DNA from: a virus
Taxonomy: Duplodnaviria; Heunggongvirae; Uroviricota; Caudoviricetes
IMG/VR virus record: IMGVR_UViG_2541047502_000013
Coordinates: 1 to 7,490 of that record
DNA: 7,490 nucleotides
Strand: one strand, 5' to 3'
Positions 6,796 through 7,490 of this stretch are shown here, piece by piece. The notes below the pieces were generated by a model. That model ran no database searches, was not told the DNA's origin, and saw only the letters and a list, made by a program, of their open reading frames with translations. Each line of letters begins with the position of its first letter. Position 1 is the stretch's first letter. The position numbers and the translations under genes are program-made.

Positions 6796-6824
6796 ACTGA
6801 TTTCTGAATGAAAGGAACTGATTT

Positions 6825-7091
6825 ATGGGATTGTTTACGACCCGCCAGTTACTCGGTTATACCGAACAAAAAGTGAAATTTCGTGCGCTGTTTCTGGAGC
6901 TGTTTTTCCGCCGTACGGTGAATTTCCATACCGAAGAGGTGATGCTGGACAAAATTACCGGAAAAACGCCGGTGGCGGCCTATGTCTCCCCGGTTGTTGA
7001 AGGAAAAGTGCTGCGTCATCGCGGTGGTGAAACCCGCGTGTTACGTCCGGGCTACGTCAAGCCGAAACACGAATTCCCCTGGAGCCGGTAA
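6825..7091 (+). pseudogene. E: Major capsid protein E (lambda gpE-like), 5' fragment only (~83 homologous codons of ~340), truncated by an internal prophage deletion
   Basis: The 88-aa ORF matches the lambda gpE N-terminus (TT.QLL...[33 protein letters not shown]). Homology ends at ~7073, followed by 5 junk codons and a stop. RBS AAGGA at 6812-6816. Confidence 0.85.
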
Positions 7092-7490
7092 AAGGAGCCG
7101 GTACCACCCTGTGGGTTTATAACGGTCAGGGTGACGCCTATGCAAACCCGTTGTCAGACGATGACTGGCAGCGACTGGCTAAGGTGAAGGATCTGACGCC
7201 GGGCGAGATGACGGCAGAATCCTACGATGATAACTACCTGGATGATGAAGACGCGGACTGGACCGCGACCGGGCAGGGGCAGAAATCTGCAGGTGATACC
7301 AGTTTTACGCTGGCCTGGAAACCGGGAGAGGAAGGCCAGAAAGGGCTTATAGGCTGGTTTGAAAGCGGCGATGTCCGGGCCTATAAAATCCGTTTTCCGA
7401 ATGGCACGGTGGATGTGTTTCGTGGCTGGGTCAGCAGTATCGGTAAGGCCGTGACGGCGAAAGAAGTGATCACCCGCACGGTGAAAGTCA
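7085..7490 (+). pseudogene. V: Major tail protein V (lambda gpV-like), 5'-truncated (starts at about codon 9, no start codon), continues beyond the window end
   Basis: The frame-2 translation [85 protein letters not shown]...[37 protein letters not shown] is near-identical by eye to lambda gpV residues ~9-135. There is no ATG/GTG/TTG in frame between the upstream stop (7028-7030) and the start of homology. It was absent from the ORF track because it has no start and runs off the window. Confidence 0.85.

Follow-up and report, generated by a model that had tools for sequence, protein, structure and literature searches.

Results

Organisation of the late region

The window, by which we mean the whole 7,490-nucleotide stretch of DNA analysed here (positions 1 to 7,490 of the IMG/VR virus record IMGVR_UViG_2541047502_000013), opens with a copy of the IS110-family element ISEc20 on the minus strand (1..1444), which is 99.7-100% identical to annotated ISEc20 copies and matches the Pfam families DEDD_Tnp_IS110 and Transposase_20. 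The element is inserted 264 nt into the terminase large-subunit gene A, whose remnant occupies 1445-3109, and identity to strain EDL933 begins at 1445. On the plus strand the Pfam matches run from an N-terminally truncated terminase A through gpW, portal, S49 protease/scaffold and decoration protein D to a fragment of the major capsid gene E and the tail-tube gene V. For A, W, B, C, D, E' and V' (the last two being the remnants of E and V) both the order and the protein families are those of phage 21 and lambda (Nu1-A-W-B-C/Nu3-D-E-FI-FII-Z-U-V-G-T-H...), but the window is without 2.5 kb of that arrangement, comprising the 3' three-quarters of E, FI, FII, Z, U and the 5' end of V. Phage 21 is 96-98% identical to the window at the nucleotide level from A through codon 84 of E, whereas its V is a different allele with 81% identity, the V of the window being nearer to the type found in UTI89, 204576 and VT1-Sakai (95-98%). 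Beyond the window, the annotation of EDL933 shows intact tail genes G, T, M, L, K, I and J and a frameshifted H; in SS52 H is annotated as intact.

A perfect GC-rich palindrome with a SacII site (CAGGCCACCGCGGTGGCCTG, 6776-6796), conserved in phage 21, lies between the stop codon of D and the start codon of E. Its RNA has a folding energy of -19.4 kcal/mol (z = -2.8 versus shuffles), and it may represent an intercistronic hairpin acting on the stability or translation of the D/E mRNA.

The capsid and tail-tube remnants

The retained 5' part of E (6825..7075, plus strand) comprises 83 codons and 2 nt, about 24% of the gene, and keeps its own RBS and ATG. Its open reading frame (6825-7091) has 88 codons in total, of which 83 encode residues colinear with residues 1-83 of lambda gpE (57% identity). 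These are followed by FPWSR and a stop codon at 7089-7091, confirming the first-pass annotation in its claim that E terminates five codons past the junction. This out-of-frame tail (7076..7091, plus strand) is V sequence that supplies the last base of the F codon, PWSR and the TAA. The match to the capsid family is significant (PF03864 Phage_cap_E, 54.2 bits, E = 1.5e-14, with a cut-off of 22.9 bits), and it covers only profile positions 1-80 of 329 rather than the whole profile that a capsid shell protein would be expected to span. Major capsid protein E has 342 aa in the intact relatives, close to the approximately 340 aa of a full-length protein, and the E remnant is flagged as a partial pseudogene by PGAP.

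The 5'-truncated tail-tube gene V enters at codon 6 and runs past the end of the window (7076..7490, plus strand). Its product is 87% identical to lambda gpV over residues 6-143 and matches PF16461 Phage_TTP_12 with 221.5 bits over profile positions 1-126 of 135 within the window, so that the N-terminal domain is present. The V frame is -1 relative to that of E' and is open from 7031, after a TGA at 7028. Frame analysis bears out the claim that V lies in another frame than E and is without a start codon: before 7130 the V frame holds no ATG, GTG or TTG, the only near-cognate triplets being ATT at 7073 and CTG at 7079 and 7109. The native start signals of V (GAGGAcgatATG) fall within the deleted interval, and the frame is preceded neither by an RBS nor by a canonical start.

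RefSeq/PGAP nevertheless lists V' as an intact gene for a 246-aa 'phage tail protein' (WP_029208397.1), beginning at ATT 7073 (L001 20249-20989) and overlapping the E' pseudogene. Since no Shine-Dalgarno sequence precedes ATT 7073, the native GAGGA...ATG having been deleted, we regard this start as an annotation convenience rather than as evidence of expression.

A further break is annotated in the Sp4-like V' of SS52 (L010 20100-20761), which is split into a frameshifted tail-tube fragment and a separate ORF with an Ig-like domain; the Sp14-like copy of the same genome is not broken. Either this one copy is still decaying or the frameshift is an error of sequencing.

The junction at 7075/7076

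Alignment to intact relatives, proposed in the first-pass annotation as the way to locate the endpoints and any microhomology, maps both ends to the base. Five intact relatives were aligned: phage 21, phage 204576, PhiR12_2* and the prophages of UTI89 and strain 120899. Base by base, E-side homology reaches 7075 in all five and ends there, with a nucleotide identity of 96-98% to phage 21, 204576, PhiR12_2* and the UTI89 prophage, and V-side identity starts at 7076 at the latest in all five (81% to phage 21 and 95.7-97.6% to the other four); the V of 204576, PhiR12_2*, VT1-Sakai and UTI89 is 95-98% identical to that of the window. The position of the junction and the end of E are thus as first described, and the description of the locus as the 5' end of E fused by deletion to a 5'-truncated V is supported.

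Two details change. The first-pass annotation had V homology begin at about 7085 and left an 11-nt junction (ttcccctggag) between the two genes, but alignment to the close relatives places the start of V at 7076, and the bases from there onward are V itself rather than filler. In these relatives V begins ATG GCA ACA CCA AAT CCC CTG GAG CCG GTA AAA (MATPNPLEPVKG), and TCCCCTGGAG corresponds to their V codons 5-8, unlike in lambda, where V begins MPVPNPTMPVKG. The 11 bases looked unassigned because the comparison had been made with the lambda V start. Every base at the join is accordingly assigned, both flanks are colinear with the intact relatives, and the join is clean, with neither filler nor, as already noted at first reading, an IS.

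At the position of the junction (7075..7076, plus strand) the UTI89-type arrangement has a further 2,522 bp (L007 957-3478), as does PhiR12_2*, and phage 21 has a further 2,554 bp; the figure for phage 204576 is 2,512 bp, from a record that has indels. The earlier estimate of roughly 2.5 kb of lambda-equivalent sequence therefore holds at 2,512-2,554 bp, depending on the relative. From the annotated phage 21, PhiR12_2*, UTI89 and lambda, the lost interval comprises E codons 84-342 (approximately 76% of E), the genes FI, FII, Z and U in full, and the RBS and first five codons of V, in agreement with the gene list first given (about 75% of E, FI, FII, Z, U and the first codons of V).

At the crossover the two parents share an imperfect patch of microhomology (7066..7075, plus strand), in which AACACGAATT on the E side and AACACCAAAT on the V side agree at 8 of 10 positions. 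Ungapped similarity on the V side extends back to 7066, and T7075 is the sole base common to both parents at the crossover itself. An exhaustive count of 2.1 million breakpoint pairs on the intact UTI89 locus gave a patch of 8/10 or better in only 0.07% of them when one side was considered and in 0.14% when either side was allowed. A search with a reconstructed intact query found no intact parent of at least 99% identity, the best relatives being 96-98% identical in the flanks. The 5' end of the parental V, and hence the exact microhomology, is read from these relatives: by this reading the breakpoints would carry an 8/10 imperfect repeat with 1 nt of exact homology at the crossover.

Distribution of the junction

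Searches were made with a 48-nt probe centred on the join, which is unable to seed on either parent alone. The 48-mer is present in 302 records, corresponding to 300 of 5,426 complete E. coli genomes, at a median of two places per genome. Among the matches listed, the junction is 100% identical and every serotyped strain is O157 or O157:H7. Nine IMG/VR contigs carry the junction as well, while a search of 50,697 deposited phage genomes gave no match across it and one of the GTDB species-representative genomes gave no exact 48-mer. The intact E-to-V region, searched with the reconstructed intact query at a coverage of at least 80%, is present in 1,531 genomes with the usual annotated genes E-FI-FII-Z-U-V. 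V-like sequence as such occurs at 4-8 places per genome. Two of the 592 places at which the junction was found are on plasmid-labelled records, where either the label may be wrong or a plasmid may carry a piece of prophage.

Two prophages carry the same module

Positions 1445-7490 of the window (6,046 nt) are 100% identical to the late region of an EDL933 prophage that adjoins serX/hya and carries tccP2 (as a pseudogene). We take this prophage to be CP-933M, the equivalent of Sp4 of strain Sakai. The second copy per genome lies in a prophage beside yodB that carries tccP and espJ, presumably CP-933U/Sp14. The yodB-site copy of FORC_044 differs from the window by one mismatch (99.98%) and has the same junction. 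The serX-hya and yodB-side copies are practically identical over the window, and the window holds no chromosomal flank. The Sp4/CP-933M and Sp14/CP-933U copies are thus alike both in sequence (100% and one mismatch, respectively) and in their E-V junction; they differ in their insertions, in that Sp4 of EDL933 and SS52 has ISEc8 in nu1, the Sp14-like copies have neither ISEc8 nor ISEc20, and the window has ISEc20 in A.

The near-identity extends well beyond the window. A stretch of about 9.3 kb that begins at nu1 and reaches mid-way into the tape-measure gene H (L001 14131-23450 versus L005) shows 3 differences between the serX site of EDL933 and the yodB site of FORC_044; beyond it, divergence jumps to 4-10%. 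Within SS52 the two copies share 12.7 kb at 99.5% (L010 13903-26581 versus L009), and identical accessions are assigned to the H, M, L and K proteins of both. The right-hand boundary of the shared block therefore lies in mid-H for EDL933 versus FORC_044 and past K in SS52, and this dependence on the strain suggests that gene conversion between Sp4-like and Sp14-like prophages has taken place repeatedly. The E-V scar lies inside this block of about 9-13 kb, which reaches from cos/nu1 into the tail genes and is common to both prophages.

The insertion in terminase A is a separate lesion

ISEc20 is absent from the corresponding position of gene A in the O157-type copies of EDL933, FORC_044 and SS52 and in four IMG/VR contigs, these being the four of the nine junction-bearing contigs that reach that part of the gene (the other five stop short of it). 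The full-length ISEc20-A junction was found in two complete genomes only, those of the cattle strains SMN013SH2 and OkiPb01679, with 1 mismatch and 1 gap over 1,862 nt (window 1-1450 and A remnant; L006 7642-9493 and L012 7642-9493). The related prophage in these two strains has a different and larger deletion, A'-to-J', which takes A straight into the tail-tip gene J, so that the E-V region is gone. The combination of the ISEc20-A junction with the E-V scar was found in no complete genome searched. Since the scar (in 300 genomes, with ISEc20 missing from the O157-type copies examined) and the insertion (in genomes that have no E-V region) occur apart from each other, they represent two separate events, and the deletion is, as the first-pass annotation had proposed, a second and independent lesion.

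Discussion

A single deletion of probable short-homology origin

The join at 7075/7076 is best read as the scar of one deletion of about 2.5 kb in a lambda/phage-21-like late operon of the O157:H7 lineage, probably of short-homology origin and copied between Sp4 and Sp14, to which we assign a probability of roughly 0.95. Because only about 0.1% of alternative breakpoint pairs have a patch of 8/10 or better, the microhomology points to an illegitimate event guided by short homology. Such an event would have joined E codon 84 to V codon 5/6. The sequences involved would have been AACACGAATT within E and AACACCAAAT where V begins, and either replication slippage or RecA-independent recombination between them fits the junction. 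At its penultimate position the patch is mismatched, which suits a simple slippage model less than ideally. Compared with other short-homology deletions of decaying prophages, the junction is alike in its clean join, its freedom from IS or filler and its imperfect 8/10 homology at the crossover, but it differs in that exact homology at the crossover amounts to 1 nt only. An intermolecular join, between sister chromosomes or between two different prophages, would leave the same scar as an intramolecular deletion.

The finding of the same scar in both prophages suggests that the defect arose once and was copied between them, and since the scar is part of a stretch that the two have exchanged, one deletion that was later copied is the simplest reading. 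Inter-prophage recombination or gene conversion could have carried the scarred module into the second prophage. Both Sp4 and Sp14 are scored 'D' for head and major tail in Table 1 of Asadulghani et al. 2009 (PMC2669165). The same study reports that the cos and Nu1 sequences of Sp4 and Sp14 are identical and that Sp4 DNA is still excised and packaged, and it attributes the terminase function to Sp14 and the virion proteins to other lambdoid prophages (PMC2669165). The lesion is thus an ordinary prophage-decay deletion in prophages already described as defective. What is added here are base-level breakpoints for a head and major-tail defect that had been published for Sp4 and Sp14 only as a 'D' in a table, and the observation that the two prophages carry one common scar. 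The record WP_029208397.1 is likewise flagged, as RefSeq presents a decapitated V as intact. The locus is a compact and tidy illustration of decay and homogenisation in the O157 prophage pool, whose members still rely on neighbours for virion proteins.

The module by itself would be unable to build the capsid shell, to join head to tail or to finish the tail tube. Any packaging of these elements must rely on the structural proteins of other resident lambdoid prophages, as has been reported for Sp4 (PMC2669165).

Alternatives to a silent deletion scar

It is conceivable that the remnants are not inert, V' being translated from ATT (or CTG) and feeding tail-tube subunits into the particles of other prophages, or the 88-aa E' acting as a dominant negative on phage-21-type capsid assembly. 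In favour of such activity, V' can be read without interruption for 246 codons and still encodes the complete Pfam tail-tube domain, E' retains its RBS and ATG, and the prophages of O157 complement one another's structural defects (PMC2669165). If the remnants were indeed active, the keeping of two identical copies per genome would signify more than recent history. However, the ATT at 7073 has no Shine-Dalgarno sequence upstream, the native GAGGA...ATG having gone with the deletion, and an intact ORF would be expected anyway in so young a lineage. Moreover, the V of the SS52 Sp4-like copy is already frameshifted, and 7031-7091 offers no slippery heptamer that would shift E' ribosomes into the V frame. 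Taken together, these points leave active remnants as an outside chance, and an inert scar as the preferred reading.

We also considered whether ribosomes might undergo a programmed frameshift that takes them from E' to V. Neither frame has a stop codon within 7031-7088, but an X XXY YYZ heptamer is absent there, and this candidate was rejected.

An assembly collapse or mis-join between two lambdoid prophages deserves consideration, since O157 genomes hold many near-identical lambdoid prophages, a classic source of mis-assembly, and V-like sequence at several places each (4-8 per genome). It is nevertheless effectively excluded, as the same 48-nt junction recurs, in most cases at two distinct loci, in 300 complete genomes that many laboratories finished independently of one another, and again in the nine IMG/VR contigs. 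Moreover, in EDL933, FORC_044 and SS52 both flanks continue colinearly into the remainder of the prophage. The first-pass annotation had named an assembly collapse as a finding that would overturn the deletion, and the recurrence of the identical junction, normally at two loci per genome, speaks for a genuine deletion instead.

The other finding so named, a lineage in which a short E-like protein is naturally followed by V without any deletion, fares no better. It draws some support from the RefSeq/PGAP model of V as an intact 246-aa protein from ATT 7073 (WP_029208397.1). Against this, E' matches the capsid profile at positions 1-80 of 329 only and its last five codons are out of frame, PGAP itself marks E as a partial pseudogene, and V has neither a Shine-Dalgarno sequence nor an ATG, GTG or TTG. 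The full E-FI-FII-Z-U-V set is present in 1,531 genomes and in all related phage records, and the junction is in no phage record. A short E-like gene with a V beginning ...ACACGAATTCCCCTGGAG directly downstream was accordingly rejected as the natural order, as none of the intact relatives has a short E followed by V, all of them having E-FI-FII-Z-U-V instead. A natural arrangement of this kind is thus scarcely credible beside a deletion.

Restriction sites at the junction

The EcoRI site (GAATTC, 7071..7076, plus strand) and the KpnI site (GGTACC, 7100..7105, plus strand) pointed out in the first-pass annotation are both present, and their proximity to the join is coincidental, as had been guessed. 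The parental sequences at the breakpoints are GAATTt in E and cAAaTC in V, neither of which is an EcoRI site; the site was created by the junction, with GAATT from E and C from V, and it is therefore a product of the join and cannot be its cause. Although a GAATTC exactly on the junction and a GGTACC 25 bp downstream might bring to mind a laboratory artefact, in which a cloned fragment was cut with EcoRI (or KpnI) and religated, this is the least likely of the explanations considered and practically negligible, as digestion and ligation of parents without EcoRI at the breakpoints could not give this join, and the junction is found in natural isolates worldwide. The KpnI site is native to the V lineage, being present in the V of the intact relatives 204576, PhiR12_2* and UTI89.
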